Of a stretch of 55,461 bases of DNA, positions 13,464-55,461 are shown in pieces; position 1 is the first letter of the stretch; every line of letters begins with the position of its first letter. The DNA comes from Pseudomonadota bacterium (GTDB lineage Bacteria > Pseudomonadota > Gammaproteobacteria > Steroidobacterales > Steroidobacteraceae). The notes beneath the pieces were generated by a model that searched no databases, had not been told where the DNA came from, and was given only the letters and a program-made list of their open reading frames with translations. The DNA lies in the NCBI GenBank assembly GCA_041159695.1, contig JBEAXT010000043.1, positions 1 to 55,461 on the forward strand, in the 5' to 3' direction. The position numbers and the translations under genes were made by a program.

Positions 13464-13491
13464 CAGCGGCCTTTTTTCCGGTGACGACACC

Positions 13492-17357: not shown

Positions 17358-17375
17358 CCGAAGCGCGGCCCTCGT

Positions 17376-18005
17376 TCAGCGTTTCGCGGCGACAAACGCG
17401 ACGCCGGCGCCGATGAAAAGCGCGGACATGCCTGCGACGTTGAGTAAAACGCCGTCGTAACCGAGATTACGAACGTCGATGAAGAAGTAAGGGTATACAC
17501 CGCTGACTTCGCCGCGCATCAGAACATAGACGAGATACGCTGCCGGGTACGCAAACACCCGCCAGACGTCGCCCCATACGAGCGCACCGCGGGGCACCGT
17601 CCGCCACCAGAAGACGGCGAAGACGATCGGCACGATGTAGTGGTGAATCAGATTCGTGACGGCGGCGATCCCCGTCGGTTGGTACTGCGCGCGGAGCAGC
17701 ACGTGAAAAATGAGACCGACCATCACGATAGACACGGCCGCAGCCGTGACGACCCAGGGTTCACGCCAAGCGGTCCATCGTGACGACGATGCGCGCGGCT
17801 TGACGAACGCTGTCGCCACGATCGCGCAGAAAAGATTGGTGAGGATCGTGTAATAACCTGCGTACATGAACACGCCGAAGGCCGCGCTGTGCCCAAGCTG
17901 CATCTGATGTTGCACGCTGAGCACGAGCTGTACCGCAAGCGAAGCCCAGCCGACGAGCGCGAGAAAAAGCGCGGTGCGAGAGGTGTTCACCAGTAATGCT
18001 GCCAC
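17376..18005 (-). CDS. integral membrane protein, about six TM helices (possibly Pr6Pr/AIG1-like family)
   Basis: 209 aa and strongly hydrophobic with regularly spaced helices. The family assignment is from memory (WWRTVPRG, YPYFFID) and is tentative. Confidence 0.6.
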   Translation of the reverse strand: MAALLVNTSRTALFLALVGWASLAVQLVLSVQHQMQLGHSAAFGVFMYAGYYTILTNLFCAIVATAFVKPRASSSRWTAWREPWVVTAAAVSIVMVGLIFHVLLRAQYQPTGIAAVTNLIHHYIVPIVFAVFWWRTVPRGALVWGDVWRVFAYPAAYLVYVLMRGEVSGVYPYFFIDVRNLGYDGVLLNVAGMSALFIGAGVAFVAAKR

Positions 18006-19048: not shown

Positions 19049-19068
19049 GGTCGGTCTCCCTGGGGCCC

Positions 19069-20946
19069 TTAGGCCGTTCGGCGTTTCAAATGCACGAGCA
19101 GGACGGACACCGCAGCGGGGGTCACGCCCGGCAAGCGCGAGGCCTGACCGAGGGTATCCGGTCGCGCGGCCGCCAGCCTCTGCCGAACTTCATTCGAGAG
19201 CCCGGCGACCGTGCTGTAGTCGAGGTCCCCGGGTAGGGCGGTCTCTTCGCTTTTGCGCTGCCGCTCGATCTCGTCCTGCTGTCGCTCGATGTACCCGGAG
19301 TACTTGGCGCGGACCTCGACCTGAAGGCGGACCGCCTCGGGGAGCCGGTCATCTAGGGCGGCGAGGCGGGGCATCGGGTCGGCAGCGGAGAAGGCCGTGC
19401 CGATGTCCTCACCCGCGGCGGCGGCGAGGGCGGGGAGCCCGGCGTAGTCCACCTCGGGTCGGCGGAGCAGATCGAAGGCTGAGACCCCCTTGAGGCGGGT
19501 GGTCGATAGCCGCCGAACTTCGGTTTCGGCGGCCTCCCGCTTCCGACAGAAGAACGTCCAGCGCTCGTCATCGACGAGCCCCATCGAGCGACCGATTTCG
19601 GTCAGTCGGAGGTCGGCGTTGTCCTCCCGAAGGAGCAACCGATGCTCGGCTCGGCTCGTGAACATTCGGTAAGGCTCGGGGGCTCCTCGGGTGATGAGAT
19701 CGTCGACCAACACACCCAGATAGGCTTCAGATCGGGAGGGGGTCCAAGGGGCCTCGTCACGGACCTGACGCGCGGCATTGATACCCGCCACCAGGCCCTG
19801 GGCGCCGGCCTCTTCGTAGCCCGTCGTGCCGTTGATCTGGCCCGCGAAGAAGAGCCCGCCGATGACCTTCGTTTCGAGCCAACCATGGAGGTCGCGGGGG
19901 TCGAAAAAGTCGTACTCGATGGCGTAGCCGGGGCGGGTGATATGGGCCCGTTCGAAGCCCCGAATCGAGCGCACGAATTCGACCTGAACATCGTACGGAA
20001 GACTCGTCGAAATTCCGTTCGGATAGACCTCGTGCGTCGACAGTCCTTCGGGCTCGACGAACACCTGATGCGAGCTCTTGTCGGCGAAGCGGTGAACCTT
20101 GTCTTCGACTGACGGACAGTACCGCGGACCGACGCCTTCGATCTTTCCGGTGAACATCGGCGAGCGATCGCAGCCTGAGCGAATCAGCTCGTGAGTCCGC
20201 TCGTTTGTCGCGGTAATGAAACATGGAACCTGCTGCGGATGCTCATTGATGCGTCCGAGGAATGAAAACACGGGACGCGGGTCATCCGAATACTGGGGCG
20301 CCATGACGCTGTAGTCGAGGCTGCGGCCATCGATTCGGGGCGGTGTACCCGTCTTGAGACGACCTACTCGGAGAGGCAGTTCGCGCAGTCGGGCCGCGAG
20401 CGCATTCGACGGCGGATCACCCGCACGACCCCCTGAATATTGGTCGAGACCCACGTGGATTCGACCCCCCAAAAAGGTGCCGACCGTGAGCACGACGGCG
20501 GGTGCTCCGAAGCGGATTCCGGTGACCGTGACGACCCCCCGAACTCGTCCGTTTTCGACCACCAGATCGGCGGCCTCTTGTTGGAAGATCGAGAGGTTCG
20601 TTTGGTTCTCGAGGAGGGTCCGAATCGCCTTCCGATAGAGAAGCCGATCGGCCTGCGCGCGGGTCGCTCGAACGGCCGGACCTTTGCTCGCGTTGAGGGT
20701 CCGAAACTGGATGCCGGCTCGGTCGACGGCGCGCGCCATCCCGCCCCCGAGGGCGTCGATTTCGCGAACGAGGTGACCCTTGCCGATACCCCCGAAAGCG
20801 GGGTTGCAACTCATCTGTCCGAGGGTCTCGATGCTCTGGGTCAGCAGCAGGGTACGACGACCCATTCGCGCCGAGGCGAGCGCGGCCTCGGTGCCGGCAT
20901 GACCGCCCCCGATGACGATGACTTCGAATGTCTCTGCGTAACTCAT
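19069..20946 (-). CDS. mnmG: tRNA uridine 5-carboxymethylaminomethyl modification enzyme MnmG (GidA)
   Basis: The true start is [29 protein letters not shown] (ATG 20946), which carries the FAD motif, giving 625 aa. The 73-codon upstream extension in the track is not protein-like. Confidence 0.95.
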
Positions 20947-21039
20947 AGACGGCGCGATTCTATGTGAATCGTTGAGATAGCGTCGGCTTCGGGACCGGCC
21001 CCGATGAGGGGCCCGAGCGCTCGGCGTAGGATCGACCCC

Positions 21040-22782
21040 ATGAGAGCTCCCTACCGACGTTTCGTTCAAAGGGCCCTGGCCGTTCTGGTCGGGCTTTTGT
21101 CCCTCAACGCTCTGGCGGCCACCTTCGAGGTTCAACTCCCCGCCAGTTTTAAGGAGGGCCCCCAAGATGGGCGCCTGCTCCTCATCTTCGCTCCGGCCGA
21201 CCAGTCTCCCGACCGGGAGCCCCGGTTTCTGGTCAATTGGGATGCCGCGGCGATCCCGTTCTTCGGCTTGGATGTCGAAGGCTGGAAGCCCGGCACCGGC
21301 CGCAGCATCGATGATGGCGCCTTCGGGTTTCCGGTACGTGCGCTTTCGAGCCTCCCGCCGGGCGACTACCGGGTTCAGGCCTTCCTCAATCGCTACGAGA
21401 CCTTTCGGCTTGCGGACGGGCGGGTACTCAAGCTTCCGCCCGATCGGGGAGAAGGTCAGCAGTGGCGCGAAAAACCCGGGAACCTATATTCGAGACCCGT
21501 GTTGGTGCGTTGGCGCGGTGCGCTGACGACCGCGCCGCCGCCGCGGCTGGTGTTGACCGAAAAAATCCCGCCCGCCGAGCCTTTTCGCGAGACGGCCTGG
21601 GTCAAATACGTTCGCGTACGCAGCGAAAGACTCTCAAAGTTTTGGGGCCGCGACATCCACCTTGCTGCCTTCGTGACCTTGCCGCTCGGGTTCAACGAGC
21701 GACCGGATGCGCGGTATCCCCTCGTCATCAATCACGGACACTTTCCCTCCGCGCCATCCAACTGGCGTGAAACACCGCCCGATCCGAATTTGGCACCCGA
21801 TTACAGCGCTCGCTTCAAACTCGAGGGCTACAACCGCATTCAGCAGCAATACGCGTGGGATTTTTTCCAAGCCTGGACCGGACCAGGCTTTCCTCGCGTG
21901 CTCCTCGTCGAGATCCAACACCCGACACCGTTCTATGACGACTCATACGGCGTCAATTCCGCGAACAACGGACCTTACGGCGATGCGATTCAGTACGAGC
22001 TCCTACCAGAAATCGAGCGCCGCTTTCGTGGCATCGGGCAGGGTTGGGCACGCTTCGTGTTTGGCGGCAGCACCGGCGGCTGGATTGCGATGGCCACCCA
22101 GATGTTTTATCCGGACGAATACAACGGCGCCTGGATCGCGTGCCCCGATCCGATCGACTTCCGTCACTACATGACGATCAACATTTACGAAGACAAGAAC
22201 GCCTATGTCATGCCGAACCGCTTCAAGCGCACGCCGCGCCCCGCACATCGAAACTGGCTGGGTCACATCGACACCACGATCGAAGAGAACAATCTTTGGG
22301 AGCTTGCGCTCGGGACACGCGGCCGCAGCGGTGATCAGTGGGATGCGTGGGAGTCCGTGTTTTCGCCCGTCGGGCCCGATGGCTATCCGCGCCGTATCTT
22401 TGATCGATTAACAGGCGAGATCGATCCAGTCACCGCAGCGCACTGGCGCGAGAACTACGATCTCGGGCACATCCTGCGTCGTGACTGGACCACGCTAGGG
22501 CCTAAGCTGCGCGGCAAGTTACGCCTGTATGTCGGCGATATGGACAACTACTACTTGAACAACGCGGTCTATGCAGTCGAAGAGTTTTTACGAACGGCAC
22601 AACCCGCCGCCGATGCCGTCATCGATTACGGCGATCGAGCAGAGCATTGCTGGAATGGCGATCACACCCGCAGTAATGCGTATTCCCGCTTACGCTATCC
22701 GCAGATGGTGTTGCCTTGGGCGGCGGAGCGAATGCTCAAAACAGCTCCACCGGGCGCAGACGTTCGTAGTTGGCGGTACTGA
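21040..22782 (+). CDS. secreted alpha/beta-hydrolase, putative-esterase family protein
   Basis: It has a signal peptide ([27 protein letters not shown]), an esterase-like core with the nucleophile elbow FGGSTGGW, and an N-terminal domain of about 200 aa of unknown fold. The start could also be 21004. Confidence 0.6.
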
Positions 22783-33293: not shown

Positions 33294-34262
33294 GTGCTGT
33301 CCCTCAACGTCAATCCCAAAGCCTTCGCCTACGTCGTGATCAGCGTCGCTGACATGGATCAAGCGCTTGATCTTTGGGTGAGGCGTTTCGGGATGGAGAT
33401 CGTCATCCGACACCGGGGCGGAGATCCCGGGCTCGAACGGCTCTGGGGGCTTGCAGACGGAGATATCGTCGATCAGGCGCTTCTGGTGACGCCGGGTCGC
33501 GAGCAGGGTGGCGTCCATCTCGTGCGTTTCCGCCGGCCAGGCCCCGCTGTGCGGGAGGGCGCAGCACCGACCGACCTCGTTCCCAAGAGCGTCGATGTCG
33601 CCGTACACGACATCCACGCGCGTTTTTCCGAGCTCGAAGCTGACGGCTTCAAGTTTCGATCAAAGATTGGGCGATTCGAGACCGACGGGATCGTGGTGCA
33701 TGAGGTGCACATGAATGGCCCGGAGTCGGTCAATATCGTGTTTCTCGAGCAAGACGGAAAACCGGAGCACGTCAGTGCCAAAGGTTATGGCGTGGCGCCA
33801 CAGATCATTGCCACCACCCCCGACAATCTTGCGGAGAAGGCCTTTTTCGAACGGGTTTTGGGTTTGGACGAGACGTCCTACCACCGGTTTTCGGGGCCGG
33901 AGGTCGAACGCACCATCGGTCTGCCTCCAGGCGGGGCGCTCGATGTCCGTATTTTTGGTGATGTCGCATTCGATTACGGCCGACTCGAAATCGTCCAATA
34001 CGAGGGCGTACAGAGCAAAGATCTCTATTCGCGGGCCGTGCCTCCGGCGCGAGGGTTCTTGTCTGTGACATTTTTCGTCAAAGATGTGGGCGATGTACTT
34101 CGCAGGGCTGCTTCACTACAGCCGTCTCGCGGGACAGCCGCCACGCGCAAGGGACCGAGTGATCACGGTACCGTCGAGACGATTTTTGGCCGCTCGCATA
34201 TGGCGACGCTCGTGTCGCCCGCTGGGCTCGTGGTACTGCTCGTCGAGCAGCCGAAGAACTGA
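33294..34262 (+). CDS. two-domain VOC (glyoxalase/bleomycin-resistance/dioxygenase fold) protein
   Basis: 322 aa with a GTG start. Two repeated beta-alpha-beta-beta-beta-like halves are present (VVISVADMDQALDLW..FGME...HLVRF in the first, and a second half). The substrate is unknown. Confidence 0.6.
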   Translation: MLSLNVNPKAFAYVVISVADMDQALDLWVRRFGMEIVIRHRGGDPGLERLWGLADGDIVDQALLVTPGREQGGVHLVRFRRPGPAVREGAAPTDLVPKSVDVAVHDIHARFSELEADGFKFRSKIGRFETDGIVVHEVHMNGPESVNIVFLEQDGKPEHVSAKGYGVAPQIIATTPDNLAEKAFFERVLGLDETSYHRFSGPEVERTIGLPPGGALDVRIFGDVAFDYGRLEIVQYEGVQSKDLYSRAVPPARGFLSVTFFVKDVGDVLRRAASLQPSRGTAATRKGPSDHGTVETIFGRSHMATLVSPAGLVVLLVEQPKN

Positions 34263-34266
34263 TCCT

Positions 34267-35070
34267 TCACCACCGGTTGCGCAGTTCGCGCAGCTTCAAA
34301 AAAATCGTTTTCGGATCCGGTTGATCCGGGAGATCGGGAAAATCTTTGCGAAGCCCTTCGATGACGGTCGGGTTTTGCAGCCTGAAAAAAGTATTGATAC
34401 GACGCTCGTCCCGCAGGGTCGTGACGGGAGCGCGAGCGCCGTCCGCGCTTTGTACGTTCGATAACAGATCGGCCGCATCTCGGTTATTCGGCTCTCGATT
34501 CAGAGTGAAGGCGAGATTACGCGCGAGGTAGTCGTGCCCCGGATGGATGCGCGTGGCATCGGGCAGCGGCGCGAGGCGCTGTATGAAGGTGAGGTAGAGC
34601 AACTCGGGGTCACCGCCGTTGTGACAATTGCCCGCCCCGGCATTGAATAGTGTGTCACCGCAGAGGAGTTCGGGCGGCGCATGCGTTGAGCGTCCACGCA
34701 TGAGCAGACACAAATGCGAACGCGTATGACCCGGGGTATCGAGGCACTCGAGTTCGACACTGCGGCCGACTTTGACGAGGTCTCCATGTTTGAGTCCCCG
34801 ATCGACCCCCGCAATTCGATCGCTTGCCCCGGCATGCGCCAAGACTCGCGCACCCGTGGCAGCTCGCAAAGGCTCGTTACCGCCGATGTGGTCGCCATGT
34901 TCGTGAGTGTTGAGGATCTGCGTGATGGTCCAGCCGCGCTCCCGGGCCGTCCTTTCGCACAACGCCCAATCGAGTGGGTCCACGGCGAGCGCCTCCCCGG
35001 TCTCCTCACAGGCAATGAGGTAGTGGTAGTTCCGCCACGCATTGGCCGGCCAAAGGCGTTCAATGATCAT
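34267..35070 (-). CDS. gloB: hydroxyacylglutathione hydrolase (glyoxalase II, MBL fold with HAGH_C tail)
   Basis: THEHGDHIGGN, PGHTRSH and HPGHDY are present, plus the C-terminal TTLRDERRINTFFR. I prefer the start at Met 35070 because the N-terminal spacing then matches E. coli GloB. ATG 35097 is possible. TTG 35151 is unlikely. Confidence 0.8.
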   Translation of the reverse strand: MIIERLWPANAWRNYHYLIACEETGEALAVDPLDWALCERTARERGWTITQILNTHEHGDHIGGNEPLRAATGARVLAHAGASDRIAGVDRGLKHGDLVKVGRSVELECLDTPGHTRSHLCLLMRGRSTHAPPELLCGDTLFNAGAGNCHNGGDPELLYLTFIQRLAPLPDATRIHPGHDYLARNLAFTLNREPNNRDAADLLSNVQSADGARAPVTTLRDERRINTFFRLQNPTVIEGLRKDFPDLPDQPDPKTIFLKLRELRNRW

Positions 35071-35150
35071 ATTTTGCCAGTGAATTTTAACACGCATCTT
35101 TTCACATACTGCCGTGCTAGTCTGACTCTGGGGGTCGGAGTGCGGGATCA

Positions 35151-37700
35151 ATGTCGAGTATCAACGGGTCCATGGACGCGGCCCCGACACCCGTGGCGGT
35201 CACGCCACTGTCGGCTTCCGTAAATCCCTTCGTTCATCGAGCGGCTTGGCAGGCTGCGCGCGATGCCTGCGCGGCAGATCCCGGCCAATTTCACGGTGAC
35301 GTCGCGAGTCGCGAGATTCATTGGTTCGAGCCCAAGGCCGGGACGCAGGGTGCATGGATCACCCGCGATACCGAAGGTCGTTGGCTCGGATTCGATGCGC
35401 GATCGGGCGCACCGGTCGAACCATCGTTACCTCAACACTATCGGCCGTGGACCCGCGCGCTCGATGACTCCGAAGCGCCGTTTTATCGGTGGTTCAACGA
35501 TGCGCTGACGAATGCCTGTTTCAACGAGGTTGATCGTCACGTTCTCGCCGGCCACGGCGCCGAAGCCGCCTTGTGGTTCGAAGGAGATCGTTGGGATCAA
35601 TCGCAGGATGGCGGACGCGGCGGGCCGGTCGTTTCTTACAGCGTGTCGCGCAAGCAGTTGCTACTCGAAGTCGCGCGTTGCGCTTTGGCGTTGCGCGGTC
35701 TCGGACTCAAGGCAGGTGATCGAATCGCGATCAACATGCCGAACATTCCGGAACAGATTTATTGGACTGAGGCCTGCAAGCGTCTCGGTGTTGTGTATAC
35801 CCCGGTATTCGGCGGATTCAGCGACAAAACACTGTCCGACCGAATTCATAATGCCGGCGCCCGAATCGTCATCACCGCCGATGGCGGATATCGCAATGCG
35901 CAAATCGTCGCATTCAAAGAGGCGTATACGGATCCGGCGCTCGATGGTTACGTCCCTGCGGAAACCGCCATCGCCGCAGTAAGAACAGCACTCGATTCAC
36001 TTGGCCTCGAGACGATGCATGCCGATGCGATACTCGCCGGCGCAAAGAAAACCGTTGCCAACGAAATCACGCTCGAACGGTCGGACATCATGCGGGGTGT
36101 CGGCCGTGCGCTAGAGGGCATCGCCGGTCTTTCACCCTCGGCAGCAAGTCGAATTCGCACCGCGATCGCCAGCGCGCTCGTTACGACGCCTTCGCGAGTG
36201 GACACGGTCATCGTCGTCAAGCACGCCGGCCAAGCGGATATCGTTTGGCGTCCGGAACGCGATCGTTGGGCGCACGAGCTGACCGATGCCGCCCTGCAGA
36301 CCCTGCTTCAGGGTGCACGTGACGCCGGATATGACGTGCGCGATGTCGGCCAATTACTCGCGCTCGATGATCGGGCCTTCGTCGCGGCAATCTGGGCCTC
36401 CGTTCCACCGGAGCCCCTCGATGCCGAGTTCCCGATGTTCTTCATCTATACGTCGGGCTCCACGGGTAAACCCAAGGGCGTCGTGCACGTCCATGGCGGA
36501 TACGTCAGTGGCGTTGCGTATACGCTGCGAGTGGCTTTCGATGCTCGCGCCGGTGACGTGATGTACGTGGTCGCCGATCCGGGCTGGATCACCGGCCAGA
36601 GCTACATGATTTGCGGCGCGCTCACGACGCGAGTGACAACGGTCATCGCCGAGGGTGCGCCGGTGTTTCCGAGCGCGGGGCGCTTTGCGAGCATCATCGA
36701 GCGTCTCAAGGTCAATATTTTCAAAGCGGGCGTCACCTTCCTGAAGACGGTGATGACCGATCCGCAGAACGTCGAGGACGTTCGTGCGTATTCCAGGGCG
36801 AGCTTGCGCGTCGCCACGTTCTGCGCCGAGCCAACCTCGCCGGTCGTCCAACAGTTCGGCATGGAACTCGTCACGCCGTGGTACACCAATTCATATTGGG
36901 CTACCGAGCATGGCGGCATCGTCTGGACTCATATGTTCGGCAATGCCGACTTCCCCTTGCGGGCTGACGCGCATACGTACCCGCTTCCCTGGATCATGGG
37001 CGATGTCTGGCTCGCCGACAGCGAGCCCGATCAGTCCGGTACGGTCGTCGCGCGAGCGGCTGAAGTGGGTGAGAAGGGCGAAATCGTCATCGCTGCGCCG
37101 TTCCCCTATCTCTGCCGCACGATCTGGGGCGCAGAGGGTGAATTCAAAGTCGAGGGACGACGAGTCGTGCGCGCGTGGCGCGGCGACTTTGAGCGCTATC
37201 GAAAAACGTACTGGACGCGCTGGAAAGATCGACTCGCCTACACACAAGGTGACTTTGCAGTGAAGTATGCCGACGGCGGCTTTTCGCTACACGGCCGATC
37301 GGACGACGTCATCAACGTCTCTGGCCATCGCCTCGGCACCGAAGAAATCGAAGGCGCGATCTTGCGTGACAAGCAGGTCAATCCGGATTCACCGGTAGGC
37401 AATGTCATCGTGGTTGGCGCGCCGCATGCGCAGAAGGGTCTGACACCGCTGGCGTTTGTTCGTCCGGCACCGGGACGCAAGATCACGGCCGAGGATCGAC
37501 GTCGTCTCATCGAAACGGTCCGACAGGAAAAAGGTCAGGTGGCGATTCCCGAAGATTTCGTGGAAGTCACACAATTTCCGGAGACGCGTAGCGGAAAGTA
37601 CATGCGGCGCATGGTTCGCGCGCTCGTCGAGGGTCAGGACGTCGGCGACATCTCAACGCTGCGTAACCCGGAGTCTATCGCCGAGTTGCGTCATGCCATC
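35151..37700 (+). other. Pcs domain 1: AMP-forming acyl-CoA synthetase (boundaries approximate)
   Basis: It contains the P-loop-like AMP motif YTSGSTGKPKG and the C-terminal catalytic Lys motif RSGKYMRR. Confidence 0.7.
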
Positions 37701-40646
37701 GCGGATTGGCAGGCACGCCAGCGCGTTGCCGACGAGCAGCAACTCTTCGAAGATTTCCGCTATTTCCGTATTCACTACCACTCGCTGGCGAGTCCGACTG
37801 TCGGCAAGCGAAAAGCTAAGAAGCCCGCGGCGCGCATCGCCGTGGTGACGATCAATAATCCGCCGGTGAACGCGCTGAACGAGCGCGCGCTCGACGAGCT
37901 CAACATCGTGATCGACCACGTTGCACGTCGCGACGATGTCAAGGCGGTGATTTTCACCGGCCAGGGGACGGGCGCCTTCGTGGCCGGCGCGGATATTCGG
38001 CAGCTGTATGAAGACGTCCATACACTCGAGGAAGCGCTGCCCTTACCGAACAACGCCCATCTTGCATTTCGAAAGATCGAGGCGATGGATAAACCCGCCA
38101 TCGCAGCGATCAACGGCGTGGCACTCGGGGGAGGCATGGAGTTTGCGATGGCATGTCACGTGCGCGTGGCCGAGCCGCTCGCGACATTCGGACAGCCGGA
38201 AGTTCGCCTCAATCTTTTGCCGGGCTATGGGGGTACGCAGCGGTTACCTCGATTGTTGGAAGACGCAGGTCATCCCGCCCCGCTCGTACGCACGCTCGAA
38301 ATCATCATGGGTGGCCGAACGCTGGAAGCAGCCGAGGTCCTTGCGGACGGATTGCTGCACGCGTTGTCGAGTGACAGTGAAGACGTGCTCGCGCTCGCCA
38401 CTCGACTGGCACGTGAGTACGTCGCTGCGCCCGCCGGGCGTAACCTCGTTGCGAAAGTATTTTCAGCACGCCGTGCTGCACAGGTTGTTTGGCAGTCGGC
38501 AGGCCGCGATGACATGAACGCCGCGTTATCCGATCCCGAAGTTCAGCGCTTGCTCGCGCAAGCGCGAACGGTCGGACGCGGACCAACGGCCGATCGAATT
38601 TTTGATGCCGTGAAGACAGGGTGGCATCAGGGAGTCGGCGCAGGGCTCGCACGCGAGGCACAACTCTTCGCCGAGGCGATCGTTGATCCGCAGGGCGGCA
38701 AGGCGGGGATTCGCGCATTCTTCGACAAGCAGAGCGCGCCGCTACCGACGCGTCGCTCTTCGACTCCTCGGGCCGATCGGATCTCCGAGCTCGTTAAGCG
38801 AGGCGATTTACTGCCGGTCGGCGCAGCATTTTTCCCAGGGCTCACACCGATTCCGCAATGGCAGTACGGGCATGCGGTGGTCAAAGACGAGAACACCGGC
38901 GCACCCGCGCACGGGCTACCGAAGAACGCAGAGCGCGAGATCATCGTGCCGGTACCGACGCCGGGGCCGAATGAAGCACTCGTGTATGTGCTCGCCTCGG
39001 AGGTCAACTTCAACGATATCTGGGCGATCACAGGCATCCCGGTATCGCCCTTCGATAACCACGATCTCGACTATCAAGTGACGGGATCGGGGGGTGTCGC
39101 CCTGATCGCTGCGGTGGGCAGCGAGGTGAAACGGGAGGGCCGGCTCAAAGTCGGTGATCTCGTGACGGTGTACTCCGGCCAGAGCGATCTGCTGTCTCCG
39201 CTTGCCGCACGCGATCCGATGTATGCCGGGTTTTCGATTCAAGGCTACGAGACCGATACCGGCAGTCATCAGCAGTTCCTGCTCGTTCAGGGACCTCAAC
39301 TGCATCCGCTACCGCCCGATCTCACGCTCGAGGCCGCAGGATCGTACGTGCTCAATCTTGGTACGGTCGTTCGCGCCTTATTCACTACGCTACAAATCGA
39401 AAGTGGCAAGACGCTGTTCGTCGAGGGTGCCGCGACGGGCACGGGATTCGAAGCGCTCAAGAGCGCTGCGCGAAATGGTCTAACGAGCGTGGGGCTGGTC
39501 TCGAGTCTTGAGCGCGCGACGTTCATCGCCGGACAGGGCGCTGCAGGGGCCATCAATCGCCGCGATCCACGTTGGGCGCAAGCTTTTACAGTCGTACCGG
39601 AGAGCACGGAGGCCATCGCCGCGTGGGAACGCGCGGGCGAACCCATTCTCGACGAAATGCGTCGCCAAGCCGGCGGCCGACTCGCGGACTACGTGGTGTC
39701 GCATGCCGGACAAGAGTCGTTCCCGCGTTCTTTCCAGTTGTTGGCAGAGCACGGAACACTGACGTTCTACGGCGCCACCAGCGGGTACTGGTTCTCCTTC
39801 GTAGGCAAAGCCGGAGCCGCAACGCCGGAAGACATGCTGCGTCGCGCTCGCTTGCGTGCGGGCGAGGCCGTCCTTCTCTATTACGGAGTGGGTGCTCAGG
39901 ACTTGCTGGATCCTGTTGGGCTCGAAGCCATCGAAGCCGTACGCAAGGCGGGTGGGCGATTGGTCGTCGCCACGGCGACGGATGCGCAGCGTGAATTCGT
40001 CCAGTCGCTTGGCTATGGCGATGCCGTACGGGGTGTCGTATCGATCGAAGAAATTCGTCGCAAGGAAGGTGCTGACTTCGATTGGCCTACCTCGCTCCCG
40101 GCGATGCCAGACTCCAAAAAAGAGACCGGGCGGTTCAAGGAAGCCGTACGACAGTTTCAGGATCGCACCATGAAACCGTTCGGTGGTGCCATCGGTCGCT
40201 GGCTGCGCTCCGCAGACAATCCGCGTGGCTATCCCGATCTCATCATCGAGCGCGCAGGACACGATGCGCTCGCGGCGTCGACATCGCTCGTGAAACCGTT
40301 CACTGGGCGAGTGGTGTATTGCGAATCGATGCAGGGGCGACGTTACACGTTCTATGCCCCACAGGTCTGGATGCGCCAGCGTCGCATCATCATGCCGACG
40401 GCCACTATCGCGGGTACGCATCTGTGCAATGCCTTCGAAGTGGCACGCATGAACGACATGATTGCGGCAGGCCAACTCGAGGTCAGCCCGCCGACAGTCG
40501 TTCCGTGGAACGAACTACCGACCGCTCACCAATCGATGTGGGATAACACCCACGCCGGAGCGAACTACGTGGTGAATCATGCGCTGCCGCGAACCGGGCT
40601 GCGCTCGCGCGATGAACTTTTCCAGGAATGGGGAGCGTCTCGATGA
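35151..40646 (+). CDS. pcs: trifunctional propionyl-CoA synthase (3-hydroxypropionyl-CoA synthetase / dehydratase / acrylyl-CoA reductase)
   Basis: 1831 aa, collinear over its full length with my recollection of Chloroflexus aurantiacus Pcs. Shared blocks are DDSEAPFYRWF, LTNACFNEVDRHV, YTPVFGGFSDKTLSDRIHNAGAR, DGGYRNAQIV, YTSGSTGKPKGVVHVHGGYV (36447-36479), ADPGWITGQSYM, ETRSGKYMRR (Lys at 37596-37598), NPPVNALNERALDELN, FVAGADIRQL, INGVALGGGMEFAMACH, LLPGYGGTQRLPRLL, LASEVNFNDIWAITGIPVS, FPRSFQLL, LTFYGATSGY and RSADNPRGYPDLIIERAGHDAL. A ggag motif lies 10 nt upstream of the ATG. Confidence 0.9.
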   Translation: MSSINGSMDAAPTPVAVTPLSASVNPFVHRAAWQAARDACAADPGQFHGDVASREIHWFEPKAGTQGAWITRDTEGRWLGFDARSGAPVEPSLPQHYRPWTRALDDSEAPFYRWFNDALTNACFNEVDRHVLAGHGAEAALWFEGDRWDQSQDGGRGGPVVSYSVSRKQLLLEVARCALALRGLGLKAGDRIAINMPNIPEQIYWTEACKRLGVVYTPVFGGFSDKTLSDRIHNAGARIVITADGGYRNAQIVAFKEAYTDPALDGYVPAETAIAAVRTALDSLGLETMHADAILAGAKKTVANEITLERSDIMRGVGRALEGIAGLSPSAASRIRTAIASALVTTPSRVDTVIVVKHAGQADIVWRPERDRWAHELTDAALQTLLQGARDAGYDVRDVGQLLALDDRAFVAAIWASVPPEPLDAEFPMFFIYTSGSTGKPKGVVHVHGGYVSGVAYTLRVAFDARAGDVMYVVADPGWITGQSYMICGALTTRVTTVIAEGAPVFPSAGRFASIIERLKVNIFKAGVTFLKTVMTDPQNVEDVRAYSRASLRVATFCAEPTSPVVQQFGMELVTPWYTNSYWATEHGGIVWTHMFGNADFPLRADAHTYPLPWIMGDVWLADSEPDQSGTVVARAAEVGEKGEIVIAAPFPYLCRTIWGAEGEFKVEGRRVVRAWRGDFERYRKTYWTRWKDRLAYTQGDFAVKYADGGFSLHGRSDDVINVSGHRLGTEEIEGAILRDKQVNPDSPVGNVIVVGAPHAQKGLTPLAFVRPAPGRKITAEDRRRLIETVRQEKGQVAIPEDFVEVTQFPETRSGKYMRRMVRALVEGQDVGDISTLRNPESIAELRHAIADWQARQRVADEQQLFEDFRYFRIHYHSLASPTVGKRKAKKPAARIAVVTINNPPVNALNERALDELNIVIDHVARRDDVKAVIFTGQGTGAFVAGADIRQLYEDVHTLEEALPLPNNAHLAFRKIEAMDKPAIAAINGVALGGGMEFAMACHVRVAEPLATFGQPEVRLNLLPGYGGTQRLPRLLEDAGHPAPLVRTLEIIMGGRTLEAAEVLADGLLHALSSDSEDVLALATRLAREYVAAPAGRNLVAKVFSARRAAQVVWQSAGRDDMNAALSDPEVQRLLAQARTVGRGPTADRIFDAVKTGWHQGVGAGLAREAQLFAEAIVDPQGGKAGIRAFFDKQSAPLPTRRSSTPRADRISELVKRGDLLPVGAAFFPGLTPIPQWQYGHAVVKDENTGAPAHGLPKNAEREIIVPVPTPGPNEALVYVLASEVNFNDIWAITGIPVSPFDNHDLDYQVTGSGGVALIAAVGSEVKREGRLKVGDLVTVYSGQSDLLSPLAARDPMYAGFSIQGYETDTGSHQQFLLVQGPQLHPLPPDLTLEAAGSYVLNLGTVVRALFTTLQIESGKTLFVEGAATGTGFEALKSAARNGLTSVGLVSSLERATFIAGQGAAGAINRRDPRWAQAFTVVPESTEAIAAWERAGEPILDEMRRQAGGRLADYVVSHAGQESFPRSFQLLAEHGTLTFYGATSGYWFSFVGKAGAATPEDMLRRARLRAGEAVLLYYGVGAQDLLDPVGLEAIEAVRKAGGRLVVATATDAQREFVQSLGYGDAVRGVVSIEEIRRKEGADFDWPTSLPAMPDSKKETGRFKEAVRQFQDRTMKPFGGAIGRWLRSADNPRGYPDLIIERAGHDALAASTSLVKPFTGRVVYCESMQGRRYTFYAPQVWMRQRRIIMPTATIAGTHLCNAFEVARMNDMIAAGQLEVSPPTVVPWNELPTAHQSMWDNTHAGANYVVNHALPRTGLRSRDELFQEWGASR
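37836..38750 (+). other. Pcs domain 2: crotonase-fold enoyl-CoA hydratase/dehydratase (boundaries approximate)
   Basis: IAVVTINNPPVNALNE, FVAGADI, GVALGGGMEFAMACH and PGYGGTQRLPRL are present. Confidence 0.7.
38931..40643 (+). other. Pcs domain 3: MDR-superfamily enoyl-CoA (acrylyl-CoA) reductase, crotonyl-CoA reductase-like (boundaries approximate)
   Basis: EALVYVLASEVNFNDIWAITG, VTGSGG and a nucleotide-binding region (LFVEGAATGTGFEALKSA) are present. Confidence 0.65.
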
Positions 40647-43600
40647 TCGTCAGGACGACCAAGGCCAAGAAGGCCAAAAAATCGAAACCCAAAAAGCCCG
40701 CGCTCAAAGTCGTCGCGCCCAAAGCGAAACCCAAGCGAGCGATCAAAAAATCTGCTGCGGCGTCTCCAAAGAAGCAGCGTTCGCGTCCGCTGCGTCTCGC
40801 CGGAAAGGTGGCGCTCGTTTCGGGTGCCGCAGGCAATATCGGCGAGGTGATTGTTCGACGCTATCTCGAAGAGGGGGCTCGCGTCGTGATGGTGGGGCGC
40901 AATCGCGCCAAGCTCGAAGCCGCGCGCACCAAGCTGCTCGCCAAAACGGGCGCCCCTGCAAGCCATGCTTATGTGCTTGATTTCGACGCTTCGGATTCCG
41001 GCCAGGCCCGGTACGGTGTCGAAGCGACGATGCGTCATTTCGGGCGTATCGATGTGCTCGTCAACAACGCGGGATCCGCTGGCCCGAAGGCGCCGATCGA
41101 AAAACTGCCCCTGTCTCGCGAAGAGCTCGAAGCCATGCGAGCCGCAGGCTCGACTGACTCGGAGACCGTTGCCGATGCCGCGGGAAATTTGCTCGGACTC
41201 AGTTGGAACATGGTTCGGGCGACCGCGCCGTATCTGCAGGCCGGTGCGTCGATCATCAACGTCTCGACCATATTCTCGCGCACCAAATATTTTGGTCGGG
41301 CCGCCTATGTCGTACCGAAATCTGCGCTGAACGCCTTCTCGAAACAGCTCGCCCTGCAGCTCGGTCAGCGCGGCATCCGAGTCAACACCGTCTATCCGGG
41401 TCCTATCGAGAGTCAGCGTATCCGTACCGTGTTCAAGGCCATGGATCAGCTACGCAAGGCACCGGATGGTACGACCGCGAACGATTTCACCTCGACCATG
41501 GCACTCTCGCGGGCTGAGCCCGCGACCGGCGCGACACACAGCTTTCCGAGCGTCGAGGATGTCGCCAACACCATCGTCTTCCTCGGCAGTGACGAATCTC
41601 AGGCCTTCAGTGCCCAAGGCTTCGAAGTCACGAATGGCATGCAGGTCATGCAAGAGTCGCGATCGACCTGGGTCTCGCGACCCGAACTACGAACGGTCGA
41701 TGGCACGGGATCAACCGTTCTCGTCGCAGCAGGTGATCAGGTCGCCGATGCGCTGACCATCGCACGCATCCAGTCAGGCTGCGGTGCACGAGTATTACTC
41801 GGACTCGGGACGGAAGAGGCGGTTCAAGCCGCCGCAACCGCGCTGCAAGACAACGATGCAGATCGACGCATCAAACCGGTGTTGTTCGATCGTCATCGAC
41901 CCGACACGCTTGCGGCCTCATTGGCCGCAGTGGATCCCGCCCAAGCTCTGCACGGTGCCGTGGTCCTCCCGGCCTTCGGAAACTGGCGCTTCAAGTCGCC
42001 GCTTTCTGAAGCGAGCGATGCAGACGTCGAAGCGTTTCTGAAGGGCGAACTTGCCGGCGCGATCGGTATCGCACGAGAGCTGTCACGACTGTGGCACCGG
42101 CTCGCGCCCGCAGGCGTCAGTCCCCGGATCATCTTCATGTCGAACGGCAGCGATGAAGCCGGCGATACCTACGCCGATATTCTACGCGCCGGTATCGAGC
42201 AACTCGTTCGCGTCTGGCGTGATGAAAGTGAGACGCAGGTGCGATCGGGTGATCGCGTAGCGCTCGAATGGTCGAACCAAATTCTGCGCTGGTCGAATAC
42301 CGAAGAGAACGGTCTTTTGTTTGCCGGCGCTCAGGCGGCTCGCCTCTTGTATACGAAGCGACGGGTGCCTCAAGTCAATCTCTACATGCCTTCGGCGATC
42401 GTCGATGCGACGGGCTCTACGCGTCCGAACTTCGGTTGGATCGAATCTCTCATGGGCCTGCATCTCGGCAAATGCGTGTTGATCACGGGCGGCTCTGCAG
42501 GAATCGGTGGTCAGCTCGGCCGATTGCTCGCGATCTCCGGTGCGCGCGTGATGCTCACGGCACGTCGCGAAAATCAGCTGATCGATTTGCGCGACAGCAT
42601 CGTGCGCGAGCTCGAAGAAATCGGCTACAACCGACCTTACGAGAGAGTACGGATCCTGTCGGACATTGATGTGGCGGACGAATCTGCACTCGTCAAATCG
42701 GTCGCAGCCACGCTCAAGGCGTTCGGGCGTATCGATTATTTGATCAACAATGCCGGCGTGGCCGGTGCCGAACAGATGGCCGTCGATCTGCTGCCCGAAG
42801 ACTGGCGCAATACGCTGCATGCCAATCTCGTCTCGAACTATTCGCTCATCGAAAAAGTCGTGCCGATGATGAAGCAGCAGGGCTCGGGCTACATTCTCAA
42901 TGTCAGTTCGTATTTCGGCGGCGAGAAGTACATTGCCGTCCCGTATCCCAACCGCTCCGACTACGCGGTATCCAAGGCCGGCCAGCGCGCCCTCGTTGAG
43001 AACCTTGCCCGATTCGTGGGCCCGGAGATCCAGATCAATGCGATTGCCCCGGGGCCTGTGGAAGGCCAGCGCCTGAAGGGCAAAGACGGCAAGGCCGGGT
43101 TATTCGATCGCCGCGCAAAACTCATTCTCGAGAATAAGCGCCTGAACCAGTTGCATGGCGCCGTACTGAAAGCGCTCGCCGACGGCGCGACACTCGATGC
43201 TGTTCTCGGTGCGATGTGCACCAACGACATCGGGCTGCTGCAATCTCCGGAGGTCCCTGCGGCGCTGCGTGAGCTCTGTATCAAGCTGAAGGCGGAACCC
43301 AATGGTTCAGAGGAGCCCACTTATTCGTCGATGCATTATTTGATGACACGCCCGATGGCAACCCGTTTGATTGCACGGTTGCGTAACGGCTGCCTGATGC
43401 CACAACTCATCCATCACGATCTGGCCGAAAAGTGGATCCTCGATTTGCCGGTTCCGCCAGAGCCCTTTGTCGATCCTGCCCGCATCGAGGCGGAGGCAGA
43501 GAAGATTCGCAATGGCGTGATCGGAATGCTGCATCTCAACCGCATGCCGACAGAAACCGACGTTGCGCTCGCGACCGTATTTTTCATGGCCGATCGAGCG

Positions 43601-44428
43601 ATCTCCGGTGAAACGTTTGAACCTTCCGGCGGATTGCAGCAAGAGCGCACCATCACGGAGCGCGAGCTATTTGGTCGCGCGAAGCCGGAGCGGGTTCGTC
43701 GTATGGAGGGCGAAACCGTGTGGTTGATTGGCGAGCACATGTCCGAACCGCTCGCTGCTGCGGCGAAACTGTTTCTCGCCGAGGGCCACGTGGGCAGCAT
43801 CGTGATGCTGACCCGTACCGCTGCCGCAGGCGATGCGATTCGTTTTGCGTTAGGCCGAGCGCTCGGACACGATCGAATTTCTTATATGGCTGTTGGCGAC
43901 GCGCTCGAAGAGGGTATGGATACGGCCTTCCAGAACCACGGCACGCCTGCGGCGGTCGTCTCGACACCGTTCGCCCCGATTCCGCGGGCGCTGTTCGGAA
44001 TCGAAGGAAAAGACCATCTTGCGGCGCCTGAATTCTCCGAACTCATCGAGATGAATCTGACCCACCACTTTCGAGTGGCACGCAAAGTGTCTTTGTTCAA
44101 AGGCGCGCGTCTCATTCTGACGTCACCCGACGTGCCGGCGGGCGGTACGCTCGCGCAGTTTGCGATGGCCAACTTCGTCAAGACCACGCTCCACGCGTTC
44201 ACGGCGACACTTGGCGTCGAAAATGAACGACTGCCGACGGCCGTGCCGGTGAACCAGGTCAATCTCACGCGTCGTATGCGTAGTGAGGAGCCGCGAGACG
44301 CTGCAGAGCAGGCGGAGGAATACGAGCGCTACGCACACGCCGTGTTGCTCGCCGCGGCGCCGATCGTCGAGGCGCAAGAGAGCCGCTATCGGGCGCGAAT
44401 TTATCGAGGTCTTGCGATCACGGTTTAG
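40643..44428 (+). CDS. mcr: bifunctional malonyl-CoA reductase (malonyl-CoA to malonate semialdehyde to 3-hydroxypropionate), with a lysine-rich N-terminal extension
   Basis: About 1261 aa, collinear with my recollection of Chloroflexus Mcr. Shared blocks are LAGKVALVSGAAGNIG (40820-40843), VNNAGSAG, INVSTIFSR, YVVPKSALNA, GIRVNTVYPGPIESQRIRTVF, GKCVLITGGSAGIGGQLGRLLAISGARVML (42485-42508), YLINNAGVAG, GSGYILNVSSYFGGEK, YPNRSDYAVSKAGQRAL, GPEIQINAIAPGPVEGQRL, LTHHFRVARK, TTLHAFTATLGVE and the C-terminus RIYRGLAITV. The ATG at 40643 overlaps the pcs stop (ATGA), with gggag 8 nt upstream. The track start at 40628 is also possible. Confidence 0.9.
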   Translation: MIVRTTKAKKAKKSKPKKPALKVVAPKAKPKRAIKKSAAASPKKQRSRPLRLAGKVALVSGAAGNIGEVIVRRYLEEGARVVMVGRNRAKLEAARTKLLAKTGAPASHAYVLDFDASDSGQARYGVEATMRHFGRIDVLVNNAGSAGPKAPIEKLPLSREELEAMRAAGSTDSETVADAAGNLLGLSWNMVRATAPYLQAGASIINVSTIFSRTKYFGRAAYVVPKSALNAFSKQLALQLGQRGIRVNTVYPGPIESQRIRTVFKAMDQLRKAPDGTTANDFTSTMALSRAEPATGATHSFPSVEDVANTIVFLGSDESQAFSAQGFEVTNGMQVMQESRSTWVSRPELRTVDGTGSTVLVAAGDQVADALTIARIQSGCGARVLLGLGTEEAVQAAATALQDNDADRRIKPVLFDRHRPDTLAASLAAVDPAQALHGAVVLPAFGNWRFKSPLSEASDADVEAFLKGELAGAIGIARELSRLWHRLAPAGVSPRIIFMSNGSDEAGDTYADILRAGIEQLVRVWRDESETQVRSGDRVALEWSNQILRWSNTEENGLLFAGAQAARLLYTKRRVPQVNLYMPSAIVDATGSTRPNFGWIESLMGLHLGKCVLITGGSAGIGGQLGRLLAISGARVMLTARRENQLIDLRDSIVRELEEIGYNRPYERVRILSDIDVADESALVKSVAATLKAFGRIDYLINNAGVAGAEQMAVDLLPEDWRNTLHANLVSNYSLIEKVVPMMKQQGSGYILNVSSYFGGEKYIAVPYPNRSDYAVSKAGQRALVENLARFVGPEIQINAIAPGPVEGQRLKGKDGKAGLFDRRAKLILENKRLNQLHGAVLKALADGATLDAVLGAMCTNDIGLLQSPEVPAALRELCIKLKAEPNGSEEPTYSSMHYLMTRPMATRLIARLRNGCLMPQLIHHDLAEKWILDLPVPPEPFVDPARIEAEAEKIRNGVIGMLHLNRMPTETDVALATVFFMADRAISGETFEPSGGLQQERTITERELFGRAKPERVRRMEGETVWLIGEHMSEPLAAAAKLFLAEGHVGSIVMLTRTAAAGDAIRFALGRALGHDRISYMAVGDALEEGMDTAFQNHGTPAAVVSTPFAPIPRALFGIEGKDHLAAPEFSELIEMNLTHHFRVARKVSLFKGARLILTSPDVPAGGTLAQFAMANFVKTTLHAFTATLGVENERLPTAVPVNQVNLTRRMRSEEPRDAAEQAEEYERYAHAVLLAAAPIVEAQESRYRARIYRGLAITV
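40790..42440 (+). other. Mcr N-terminal half: SDR-type malonate-semialdehyde (alcohol-forming) reductase region (boundaries approximate)
   Basis: It has a Rossmann motif SGAAGNIG and a YxxxK motif (YVVPK). Function is assigned by analogy with the dissected Chloroflexus enzyme. Confidence 0.6.
42441..44425 (+). other. Mcr C-terminal half: SDR-type CoA-acylating malonyl-CoA (aldehyde-forming) reductase region (boundaries approximate)
   Basis: It has a Rossmann motif TGGSAGIGG and a YxxxK motif (YAVSK). Function is assigned by analogy with the dissected Chloroflexus enzyme. Confidence 0.6.
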
Positions 44429-44443: not shown

Positions 44444-45097
44444 ATGAAGATCGAAGTCGTACCCGTCACGGCCTTTCAGCAGAACTGCAGCATCGTCTGG
44501 TGCGAACGCACTCGGCAAGCAGCGGTGGTCGATCCGGGGGGTGAGCTCGACCGTATTTTGGACGTGGTTCGGCGTCATGGCCTGACCCTTCAAAAAATCT
44601 TGATCACTCACGCGCATCTCGATCATGCCGGGGCGACGGCAGAACTCGCCGAGCGTCTTTTACTCCCGATCGAGGGACCCCAGGCGGACGATCAATTCTG
44701 GATCGACCAAATGCCTGCGCAGGCGAAGATGTTCGGCTTTCCGCCCTCGGATCGATTCACGCCCGATCGATGGCTGGTGGATGGTGATCGGGTCAACGTG
44801 GGGGAGGTCGAGTTCGAGGTGCTGCACTGTCCCGGACATACGCCTGGACACGTTGTGTTCTTCCAGCGCGAGTCACGCTTCGCGATCGTCGGCGACGTGA
44901 TCTTCGCCGGATCCATCGGTCGAACGGATTTTCCTCGGGGCAATCACGATCAGTTGTTGCACTCGATTCGGGATCACCTCTTTCCGCTCGGCGATGACGT
45001 CACTTTCTTGCCCGGTCATGGACCGACGTCAACTTTCGGCGCGGAGCGACAAAGCAATCCGTTCGTCGCCGATCGCTTGTTTGCGGGACGTCGTTAA
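44444..45097 (+). CDS. MBL-fold metallo-hydrolase, YcbL/GloC-like (glyoxalase II-type thioester hydrolase)
   Basis: 217 aa from ATG 44444 with [29 protein letters not shown] and PGHGP. It starts 15 nt after the mcr stop on the same strand. Confidence 0.8.
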
Positions 45098-53454: not shown

Positions 53455-54144
53455 CTAGCCGACCACCAGGCGGCCAAACGCTTGCCTGCCGAGGCGGAGG
53501 CGCGTGGGGTCGTCCGCGCCATGGGGAAACACGGCCAACGGCGGTACCCCGAGCAGGGACTCCAGAGACGCAAGGTTTTCTTCGCTTCGAGACAGGTTCG
53601 GATCGATCCGATTGCCGATCCAGCCAGCGAGCGTGATCCCCGAATGACGGATCGCCTCGGCAGTCAGCACCGCATGGTTGAGGCATCCCAGCCGGAGCCC
53701 GACCACCAGCAACACGGGTAGGGCGATGGCTTGCGCGAGATCCGCGATGCTCTGGCCGGGGCCGAGCGGTGCACGCCACCCACCTGCGCCCTCGACCACC
53801 AGCCAGTCATATTGTGTCGCTCGGCTGCGGGCCAAGGCGGCGATTTGTCGAACATCCATGTCGATCCCCGCTTCAGCTGCCGCGAGATGTGGCGAGATGG
53901 GCGGCTCAAAACAATAGGGATTCGTCGCCTCGTAATCCGACTCGCCCGCCGCCGCCATCAGCGCAAGCGCATCTTCGTTTCGTAAGCCCGCGGGAGTCCG
54001 CTCAGCGCCGGAGGCCACGGGTTTCATGACACCGACCCGAAGTCCCTGGGACCGCGCAGCCGTGACTAACGCTGTCGAGACGAACGTCTTACCGATCTCG
54101 GTATCGGTTCCTGTGACGAAGACACCGTTGATGCGTCCGGTCAT
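53455..54144 (-). CDS. bioD: dethiobiotin synthetase
   Basis: 229 aa with the P-loop FVTGTDTEIGKT and VEGAGG. The ATG overlaps the stop of the upstream gene (ATGA). Confidence 0.9.
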   Translation of the reverse strand: MTGRINGVFVTGTDTEIGKTFVSTALVTAARSQGLRVGVMKPVASGAERTPAGLRNEDALALMAAAGESDYEATNPYCFEPPISPHLAAAEAGIDMDVRQIAALARSRATQYDWLVVEGAGGWRAPLGPGQSIADLAQAIALPVLLVVGLRLGCLNHAVLTAEAIRHSGITLAGWIGNRIDPNLSRSEENLASLESLLGVPPLAVFPHGADDPTRLRLGRQAFGRLVVG

Positions 54145-54727
54145 CGCCGCGAACTCCTCGGGAATGGCACGACCACCTCGCCGTCGCTCGTCCGACGTCT
54201 CCCGCCTCCGGAAAATGCCGCGACATAAATGGTCTCGCGTTCATCACTCTCGAATCTGTCGATATCGAGCACCGGTTCGACGAACCCGGCCCTCATCAAT
54301 GCACTGCCGAGATCATGGATGTCGGCCTGCCCACGGGATGCCGTCGCGCTCGGTGATGTACAAAGAAAAAGTCCGCCATCAACTAACACCCGGTGAATCT
54401 CCCTCAATGACGAATCAAGCGCCTCGATCCCTGGCGCCCAATCGTTGGCGATAACGAGATCGACGCTTCGATCGTCGAGTGGCCATTGAGTGAGTGTCGC
54501 ATCGATGTATTCGATGCGCGACCCGCGCCGAACGATGTGCTCGAAAACCGACGCAATCCATCCGACGGATTTCTTTGCTTTGCCCGTCGAAATAATGCGC
54601 GCTCGGGGAAACACCGCACGCAATGCCTCCGGTAGTCCCTCCCGTTGGCCGTCGATGTCGAGCACCACCGCCGGATTCAGGGCGAAATGATCGAGGCGAC
54701 TGAGTAACTCTTCATACACAAGCCGAC

Positions 54728-54731
<4 letters not shown>
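54141..54731 (-). CDS. BioC-position class I methyltransferase-fold protein, short and with a degenerate SAM-binding motif I
   Basis: 196 aa. Methyltransferase post-motifs are present (VDLVIANDW, LREIHRVLVDGGLFLCTS). Motif I reads VVLDIDGQREG (54636-54668) instead of VLDLGCGTG. It is flanked by ATGA overlaps with bioF and bioD. Confidence 0.6.

Positions 54732-55461
<730 letters not shown>

Follow-up and report, generated by a model that had tools for sequence, protein, structure and literature searches.

The 3-hydroxypropionate bi-cycle of Chloroflexus aurantiacus has two signature enzymes, malonyl-coenzyme A (CoA) reductase (MCR) and propionyl-CoA synthase (PCS), whose genes, mcr (Caur_2614) and pcs (Caur_0613), lie far apart. 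Pairs of pcs and mcr reportedly also occur in aerobic anoxygenic phototrophs, namely Erythrobacter sp. NAP1 and the NOR5/OM60 clade. To our knowledge, the role of such pairs outside Chloroflexi is unsettled. We report here on a stretch of 55,461 nt from a Steroidobacteraceae bacterium (contig JBEAXT010000043.1, called the window below) in which the same two genes adjoin one another. Together, their open reading frames (ORFs), of 1831 and 1261 residues, cover 9278 nt, or 16.7% of the window, in line with an original prediction made from the DNA alone, which had singled out two giant ORFs making up a sixth of it. With a probability of roughly 60%, our best explanation as a whole is that the ORFs code for genuine PCS and MCR enzymes, that they form a two-gene unit, that this unit serves to co-assimilate acetyl-CoA and bicarbonate, and that it has a horizontal history.

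The first gene, pcs (35151-40646), lies on the plus strand, as do all features of the pair described below, and codes for a predicted trifunctional PCS of 1831 residues followed by the stop codon. In a search of all PDB sequences, residues 30 to 1830 of the product were aligned with residues 26 to 1842 of the Erythrobacter sp. NAP1 enzyme (6EQO) as one collinear HMMER domain of 2449 bits, and the next matches are single-domain enzymes with scores some ten times lower. The identity amounts to 60% across the C-terminal 829 aligned residues and looks higher in the ligase part, as judged by eye. The order of domains claimed at the outset, a CoA ligase followed by a crotonase and a medium-chain dehydrogenase/reductase (MDR), was confirmed by Pfam. 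The predicted AMP-forming 3-hydroxypropionate-CoA ligase domain (35151-37700, approximately residues 1-850) comprises ACAS_N (97-125), AMP-binding (389-650) and AMP-binding_C (748-816) matches, and its motifs YTSGSTGKPKG, GRSDDVINVSGHR and ETRSGKYMRR are identical or conservatively replaced in the alignment with 6EQO. It is followed by a putative dehydratase domain with a crotonase fold (37830-38561, residues 894-1137; ECH_1 at 894-1111, 7e-34), which keeps the GGGMEF and GQPE motifs of 6EQO, the latter aligning with E1027. We take these motifs to hold the two crotonase glutamates. The C-terminal domain (38835-40643, residues 1229-1831) is MDR- or crotonyl-CoA-reductase-like and would be the acrylyl-CoA reductase; it has ADH_N/ADH_zinc_N matches at 1272-1803, and its NFNDIW and GAATGTG motifs are likewise identical to those of 6EQO or conservatively replaced.

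The second gene, mcr (40643-44428), codes for a predicted bifunctional MCR (K14468) of 1261 residues plus stop; the residue numbers used below are those of a 1266-residue reading that starts at 40628. Residues 55-1266 form one collinear alignment with residues 5-1229 of the Roseiflexus castenholzii enzyme (8HI4; 1206 bits), and the alignment with the C. aurantiacus enzyme (8HJW; 1147 bits) is also collinear over the full length. Two separate adh_short modules were found by Pfam, in agreement with the two short-chain dehydrogenase/reductase (SDR) modules described in the original prediction. The N-terminal half, MCR-N (40793-42397; SDR1-SDR2), matches the solved N-terminal fragments 6K8V, 8HI6 and 8AEW and would reduce malonate semialdehyde to 3-hydroxypropionate. 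The C-terminal half, MCR-C (42398-44425; SDR3, extra domain, SDR4), matches the C-terminal fragments 6K8S, 8HI5 and 8A30 and would reduce malonyl-CoA to malonate semialdehyde. Among these structures, 6K8V and 6K8S are from Porphyrobacter dokdonensis. Close homologues of the protein are named malonyl-CoA reductase in JGI. Its N-terminal motif is RLAGKVALVSGAAGNIG and its C-terminus reads SRYRARIYRGLAITV; the N-terminal pattern given for Mcr in the original prediction is present, and so is the C-terminal one except at two positions.

Mutants that lose or lower activity have been described for a series of residues of the Roseiflexus MCR (PMC10470521), each of which has its counterpart in the window. 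In SDR1, Thr165, Tyr172, Arg175, Tyr178 and Lys182 correspond to T214, Y221, R224, Y227 and K231, so that the Thr-Tyr-Lys triad and the malonate-semialdehyde-binding Tyr and Arg are present. In SDR3, Ser731, Tyr743, Arg746, Tyr749 and Lys753 correspond to S761, Y773, R776, Y779 and K783, and Arg785, Leu795, Arg799 and Arg1164 to R815, L825, R829 and R1201; among these are the Ser-Tyr-Lys triad, the Tyr-Arg proton pair and the malonyl-CoA-binding Arg residues. All of them but K783 are invariant in an alignment of 13 homologous sequences down to 61% identity, and K783 is replaced by Thr in one sequence. Relative to five related loci, the dN/dS ratios of pcs are 0.03-0.06 and those of mcr 0.02-0.06, which are rough values since dS is saturated. 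Both genes are intact and strongly constrained by purifying selection. A 35-nt direct repeat with 77% identity (41039-41073 and 42722-42756) within mcr encodes the FGRID-(V/Y)L-(V/I)NNAG segments of SDR1 and SDR3 and reflects, at the DNA level, the internal duplication of SDR modules.

The two proteins are thus very probably true orthologues of Pcs and bifunctional Mcr, because they align collinearly over their full lengths, keep the catalytic and binding residues and have low dN/dS. Neither enzyme has a dedicated model in NCBIfam, and generic domain families alone match them, below or near the cut-offs, as would be expected if the ORFs were unrelated fusions of generic acyl-CoA synthetase, crotonase, MDR and SDR modules. 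Nevertheless, such fusions are hardly credible here: the single collinear alignments to 6EQO and 8HI4/8HJW also span linkers and non-catalytic domains, and specific substrate-binding residues are kept, so that the full-length alignments of both proteins led us to discard this possibility. Alignments restricted to individual domains or missing catalytic residues had been named in the original prediction as what would speak against its gene calls. Both proteins align end to end, and all the residues that were checked are kept.

The TGA stop codon of pcs (40644-40646) overlaps the ATG start codon of mcr (40643-40645). The resulting ATGA at 40643-40646, correctly read in the original prediction, is preceded by a Shine-Dalgarno-like GGGGAG (40630-40635) with a 7-nt spacer, and together they make up a putative coupling element at 40630-40646. 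The mcr ORF can open at 40628 (1266 residues) or at 40643 (1261 residues). The start at 40628 was dropped since AGGA abuts that ATG, GGGGAG lies 7 nt before 40643, and the relatives as well as two gene callers use the ATGA. In two independent assemblies with an identical protein, the gene calls give 1261 residues and a 4-nt overlap with the upstream gene. When we compared the junction in 68 related loci with both genes present, an ATGA, GTGA or TTGA overlap was found at the same place in about 45 of them. All Steroidobacteraceae or Steroidobacteraceae-like loci except one are among them, as are most of the Gemmatimonadota loci, and GGAG usually lies upstream, whereas the Burkholderiales and several alphaproteobacterial loci have a gap of 11-118 nt between pcs and mcr. 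The overlap is a conserved feature, from which we infer translational coupling of the two genes.

Using MCR as a query against one genome per species, for a total of 185,579 species, we found at least 505 loci with a relative; lineages and genetic environments were described for the best 80 of these loci. The closest genomes are metagenome-assembled genomes (MAGs) of Steroidobacteraceae or uncultured "Acidibacter", with MCR proteins 93-99% identical to that of the window. The host lineage is thus Steroidobacteraceae, "Acidibacter"-like and known solely from MAGs, rather than of the OM60/NOR5 type implied by the original prediction, and the isolate names of the closest MAGs suggest that they come from lakes. 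The best 80 loci belong to Steroidobacteraceae, Nevskiaceae, Gemmatimonadota, Burkholderiales (Rubrivivax, Rhodoferax, Methylibium, Aquabacterium), Sphingomonadales (Polymorphobacter), Parvularculaceae, Vulcanimicrobiales and Armatimonadota. To speak of a few aerobic anoxygenic phototrophs, as the original prediction did, falls short of this number of loci in several phyla. Two loci (L012 and L018) are titled Klebsiella pneumoniae, yet they carry a uvrD-gloB-pcs-mcr-gloC-cta block of the Steroidobacteraceae type, with MCR proteins 75-80% identical to that of the window; the taxonomy assigned to them in public records is almost certainly mistaken.

In the best 80 loci, pcs is directly upstream of mcr wherever the upstream sequence suffices, with two exceptions. 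In a Vulcanimicrobiales locus (L049:5648-13633), dabB-dabA, coding for an inorganic-carbon transporter, directly precede mcr and no pcs is found within 10 kb; in an Armatimonadota locus (L063:9962-13606), mcr has no adjacent pcs. Beyond pcs and mcr, no neighbour family is common to different lineages among the loci examined, each clade having its own housekeeping context. In five Burkholderiales loci (L053, L045, L050, L062 and L064), pcs-mcr have downstream of them, in the same orientation, a gene for a single-chain biotin carboxylase of 1824 residues, composed of biotin carboxylase, biotin carboxyl carrier protein and carboxyltransferase parts (BC-BCCP-CT; for example L053:13651-19125). Many of the MCR carriers among the matches listed come from genera with phototrophic members, for example Gemmatimonas, Polymorphobacter, Rubrivivax and Rhodoferax. 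In one lake, the freshwater Steroidobacterales genus UBA964 has been described as a major group of aerobic anoxygenic phototrophs (PMC10976687). A photoheterotrophic setting is plausible for the host of the window.

We compared the evolution of the two proteins in 39 complete pairs. The pairwise distances of PCS and MCR correlate with r = 0.95, a value reached by none of 999 Mantel permutations, and the neighbour-joining trees are largely congruent. In these trees, the sister of the Steroidobacteraceae clade is one of two Gemmatimonadota clades, the other of which groups with Burkholderiales and Alphaproteobacteria. Since distances correlate and trees agree across phyla, the data fit a cassette that has spread horizontally between phyla as a unit.

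As for its function, the pair would convert acetyl-CoA and bicarbonate to propionyl-CoA, in an assimilation of C2 units and inorganic carbon at the expense of NADPH and ATP. The housekeeping acetyl-CoA carboxylase would provide malonyl-CoA, which MCR-C and then MCR-N would reduce to 3-hydroxypropionate with 2 NADPH for both steps. PCS would take up 3-hydroxypropionate with ATP and CoA, dehydrate it to an enclosed acrylyl-CoA and reduce the latter with NADPH to propionyl-CoA, as this enzyme is said to do in the organisms where its chemistry was described. Propionyl-CoA would probably proceed via the methylmalonyl-CoA route to succinyl-CoA. The predicted MCR chemistry is that of the Roseiflexus enzyme, which reduces malonyl-CoA in two steps with two NADPH (PMC10470521). 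A flux that runs from malonyl-CoA through both enzymes to propionyl-CoA is suggested because pcs and mcr are coupled and co-inherited, and the bicarbonate-consuming direction is favoured because a biotin carboxylase or DabAB is encoded beside the cassette in other lineages. The same co-assimilation role has reportedly been proposed for Chloroflexus. We give this physiological role about even odds.

Several points weigh against it. The evidence from neighbouring carboxylase genes comes from other lineages than the clade of the window. No gene for an acetyl-CoA carboxylase, a propionyl-CoA carboxylase, an epimerase or a mutase is present in the window, and the steps upstream and downstream of the pair are therefore assumed. 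In addition, the pair might be part of a complete bi-cycle, which has been claimed for some MAGs of Burkholderiales and Gemmatimonadales.

The latter possibility, in which pcs and mcr would make up the first half of an autotrophic 3-hydroxypropionate bi-cycle with mcl, mch, mct, meh and smtAB elsewhere in the genome, is unlikely in our estimate. The window has 41 large candidate ORFs, 39 of which were scanned with profiles, the set leaving out 54141-54731 and 54728-55423, beside bioD, and ORFs of less than 150 residues. No HpcH_HpaI, CoA_transf_3 or MaoC domain was detected in these 39 ORFs, in keeping with the absence of other bi-cycle genes from the window stated in the original prediction. 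We know of no second cycle in the earlier proteobacterial carriers, Erythrobacter NAP1 and NOR5, which also counts against a complete one here. The mcr and pcs genes of Chloroflexus, for their part, are themselves scattered from the other cycle genes, and the cassette of the window has a Gemmatimonadota clade as its sister. According to a survey of 52,515 MAGs (PMC9802188), some of those from Burkholderiales and Gemmatimonadales contain the full set of bi-cycle genes, and a partial pathway can therefore not be assumed by analogy. Nevertheless, that survey lists Steroidobacteraceae for the Calvin cycle only, although its Steroidobacteraceae MAGs are from soil and compost and not from the clade of the window, for which the listing is uninformative. 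Given the absence of the remaining genes from the ORFs scanned in these 55 kb, the pair may be a stand-alone half of the bi-cycle.

The pair might instead assimilate or detoxify external 3-hydroxypropionate or acrylate, with PCS as the main enzyme and MCR as an accessory one or working in reverse. PCS alone turns 3-hydroxypropionate into propionyl-CoA and encloses the toxic acrylyl-CoA, and genes for two thioester hydrolases of the glyoxalase II type lie on either side of the pair. However, MCR would be superfluous for such a role, yet mcr is coupled to pcs, has been inherited together with it across phyla and is under equal constraint. The closest MAGs also seem to come from lakes, where 3-hydroxypropionate and acrylate derived from dimethylsulfoniopropionate (DMSP) are scarce, and no gene for a 3-hydroxypropionate or acrylate transporter or for DMSP metabolism is adjacent to the pair. 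We regard this role as improbable, slightly more so than a complete bi-cycle. Between the roles suggested in the original prediction, bicarbonate co-assimilation is thus favoured, and assimilation of 3-hydroxypropionate or acrylate is the weaker option because mcr is co-inherited and coupled.

MCR starts with a polycationic tail of 50 residues (40643-40792), which has no counterpart in the solved MCRs. Its sequence, MIVRTTKAKKAKKSKPKKPALKVVAPKAKPKRAIKKSAAASPKKQRSRPL, contains 16 Lys and 4 Arg, and neither Asp nor Glu. Such tails are present in 22 of the 23 MCRs of the Steroidobacteraceae-type clade that were examined, and in the remaining one (L003) the tail could not be delimited. They are 11-66 residues long, rich in Lys, Ala, Pro and Thr, with at most one acidic residue, and highly variable in sequence and length. 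The Gemmatimonadota MCRs have short N-termini of mixed charge instead. The dN/dS of the tail is 0.1-0.4, which is relaxed yet below 1, and the frame is open in all tailed loci. Among the 41 candidate genes of the window, the only comparable segment is a probably spurious ORF extension at 2970. This tail is a previously unreported detail of the Steroidobacteraceae MCRs, and we can but speculate that it serves in polyanion binding or localisation.

The presence of the tail bears on another possible use of the pair, the supply of 3-hydroxypropionate or propionyl-CoA for biosynthesis, for example of storage polyesters of 3-hydroxypropionate and 3-hydroxyvalerate or of odd-chain lipids, with the Lys-rich tail docking MCR on a polyanionic or granule surface. 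PhaF and PhaM, which are associated with polyhydroxyalkanoate (PHA) granules and the nucleoid, have histone-like tails to which that of MCR can be likened, and a Lys/Ala/Pro-rich segment of 11-66 residues, practically free of acidic residues, is confined to the Steroidobacteraceae MCRs. Nevertheless, the likeness is compositional only, the tail is absent in other lineages that keep the cassette, and neither a PHA synthase nor a phasin gene was found among the scanned ORFs of the window, which makes a biosynthetic role very improbable. In a broader scenario built on bicarbonate co-assimilation, which we put forward as a long shot, the cassette would be a widespread mobile module for the co-assimilation of bicarbonate and acetyl-CoA in abundant lake bacteria (Steroidobacterales, possibly of the UBA964 type, Gemmatimonadota and Burkholderiales), and the tail would tether MCR to the nucleoid, to polyphosphate or to a storage granule. 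If so, heterotrophs or photoheterotrophs would fix a sizeable amount of inorganic carbon without a recognised autotrophic cycle.

The genetic environment of the pair agrees with the core region named in the original prediction, as the window carries dnaA-dnaN-recF-gyrB, yidC, mnmE, mnmG, uvrD and a cox/cta operon. Its large ORFs include glyS, gyrB, recF, dnaN, dnaA, yidC, mnmE, mnmG, trkH/trkA, uppP, pyrF and uvrD; others code for an AI-2E transporter, a VOC-fold protein, CtaB, CtaA, SURF1, CoxC, CtaG, CoxA, CoxB and BioD. The cumulative GC skew has its minimum at approximately 15-17 kb. Because of this skew minimum and the core-gene content, the window is assigned to the origin-proximal core genome. 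The replication-origin genes gyrB, recF, dnaN and dnaA, followed by yidC, mnmE and mnmG, occupy 7168-21165. The dnaA ORF as listed has 553 residues, about 100 of them ahead of DnaA_N, and its true start is probably further downstream. Two ORFs, 21004-22782 (plus strand, 592 residues), which overlaps the listed mnmG ORF at its 5' end, and 17376-18005 (minus strand, 209 residues), have no Pfam match at 1e-6. A small gene at 5329-5802, adjoining argG and a phosphoribosyltransferase gene, codes for Host_attach and bacterial eRF1-like (baeRF family 12) domains.

Next to the pair, the gene order is gloB, pcs-mcr and a gene for a glyoxalase II of the gloC/ycbL type. The glyoxalase II gene gloB (34267-35070, minus strand; TIGR03413 at 5e-50; PDB 1XM8, 1QH3) is divergent from pcs. 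Its longer ORF (34267-35151) was trimmed to 35070, as relatives and PDB matches begin at residues 27-40 of that ORF. The 80-nt intergenic region (35071-35150) between these divergent genes is the presumed promoter region, with GGAG at 35137-35140, 10 nt before the ATG of pcs; no sigma-70 consensus site was found in it, and the promoter and terminator scan gave nothing above chance. Downstream, the gloC/ycbL-type gene (44445-45097, plus strand, ATG at 44445) lies on the strand of mcr and begins 16 nt past its stop codon; it may be co-transcribed with mcr, and no terminator-like site was detected in the gap. We considered this metallo-beta-lactamase-fold gene as a pathway-specific thioesterase and abandoned the idea, since it is a full-length YcbL/GloC orthologue (2XF4, 301 bits) and so probably has a housekeeping function. 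The location of the pair between the VOC-fold (glyoxalase-I-like) gene with gloB (33294-35070) and gloC (44445-45097) is common to some 10-18 related MAGs. In four other Steroidobacteraceae loci (L008, L013, L015 and L026), the cassette is found in other contexts, for example beside genes for a pyrroloquinoline quinone (PQQ) dehydrogenase and a TonB receptor.

Synteny extends from uvrD to the cox genes in about 18 related MAGs. The GC content at third codon positions (GC3) of pcs and mcr is 0.68, within one standard deviation of the other genes (0.70 +/- 0.05), and their GC content is normal. No tRNA gene or Rfam family was found in the window, and repeats occur at chance level only, with none flanking the pair. 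On these grounds we rejected a recent island or mobile element. Together with the synteny, they suggest that the cassette has long resided in the origin-proximal core genome of this Steroidobacteraceae lineage and has been ameliorated there.

The occurrence of the cassette outside Chloroflexi was already known; the window adds one more lineage to it, and the cassette is commoner than assumed. Rather than a rarity of a few marine isolates, pcs-mcr represent a co-evolving cassette in hundreds of species-level genomes of at least three phyla. Surveys that use mcr or pcs as markers of autotrophy should thus expect many matches from organisms like the host of the window. The accepted functions of both enzymes are unchanged by this pair. 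The PCS of the window belongs to the same length class as those of Erythrobacter NAP1 (6EQO) and C. aurantiacus (1831 versus 1850 residues) and shares their ligase-dehydratase-reductase order, in a Steroidobacteraceae host instead. Its MCR resembles those of Roseiflexus (8HI4), Chloroflexus (8HJW) and Porphyrobacter (6K8S/6K8V) in its body of four SDRs and an extra domain, and its C-terminus, ending in RYRARIYRGLAITV, is identical to theirs, but these solved enzymes lack the Lys-rich tail of 50 residues. The 4-nt overlap between the two genes is like those of the Gemmatimonadota, in contrast with the gaps of 11-48 nt or the TTGA/GTGA overlaps of alphaproteobacterial loci. Lastly, in the proteobacteria NAP1 and NOR5 the two genes reportedly adjoin one another and no further bi-cycle gene lies close by, as in the window, whose host differs from them in being a member of the Steroidobacterales, probably from freshwater.

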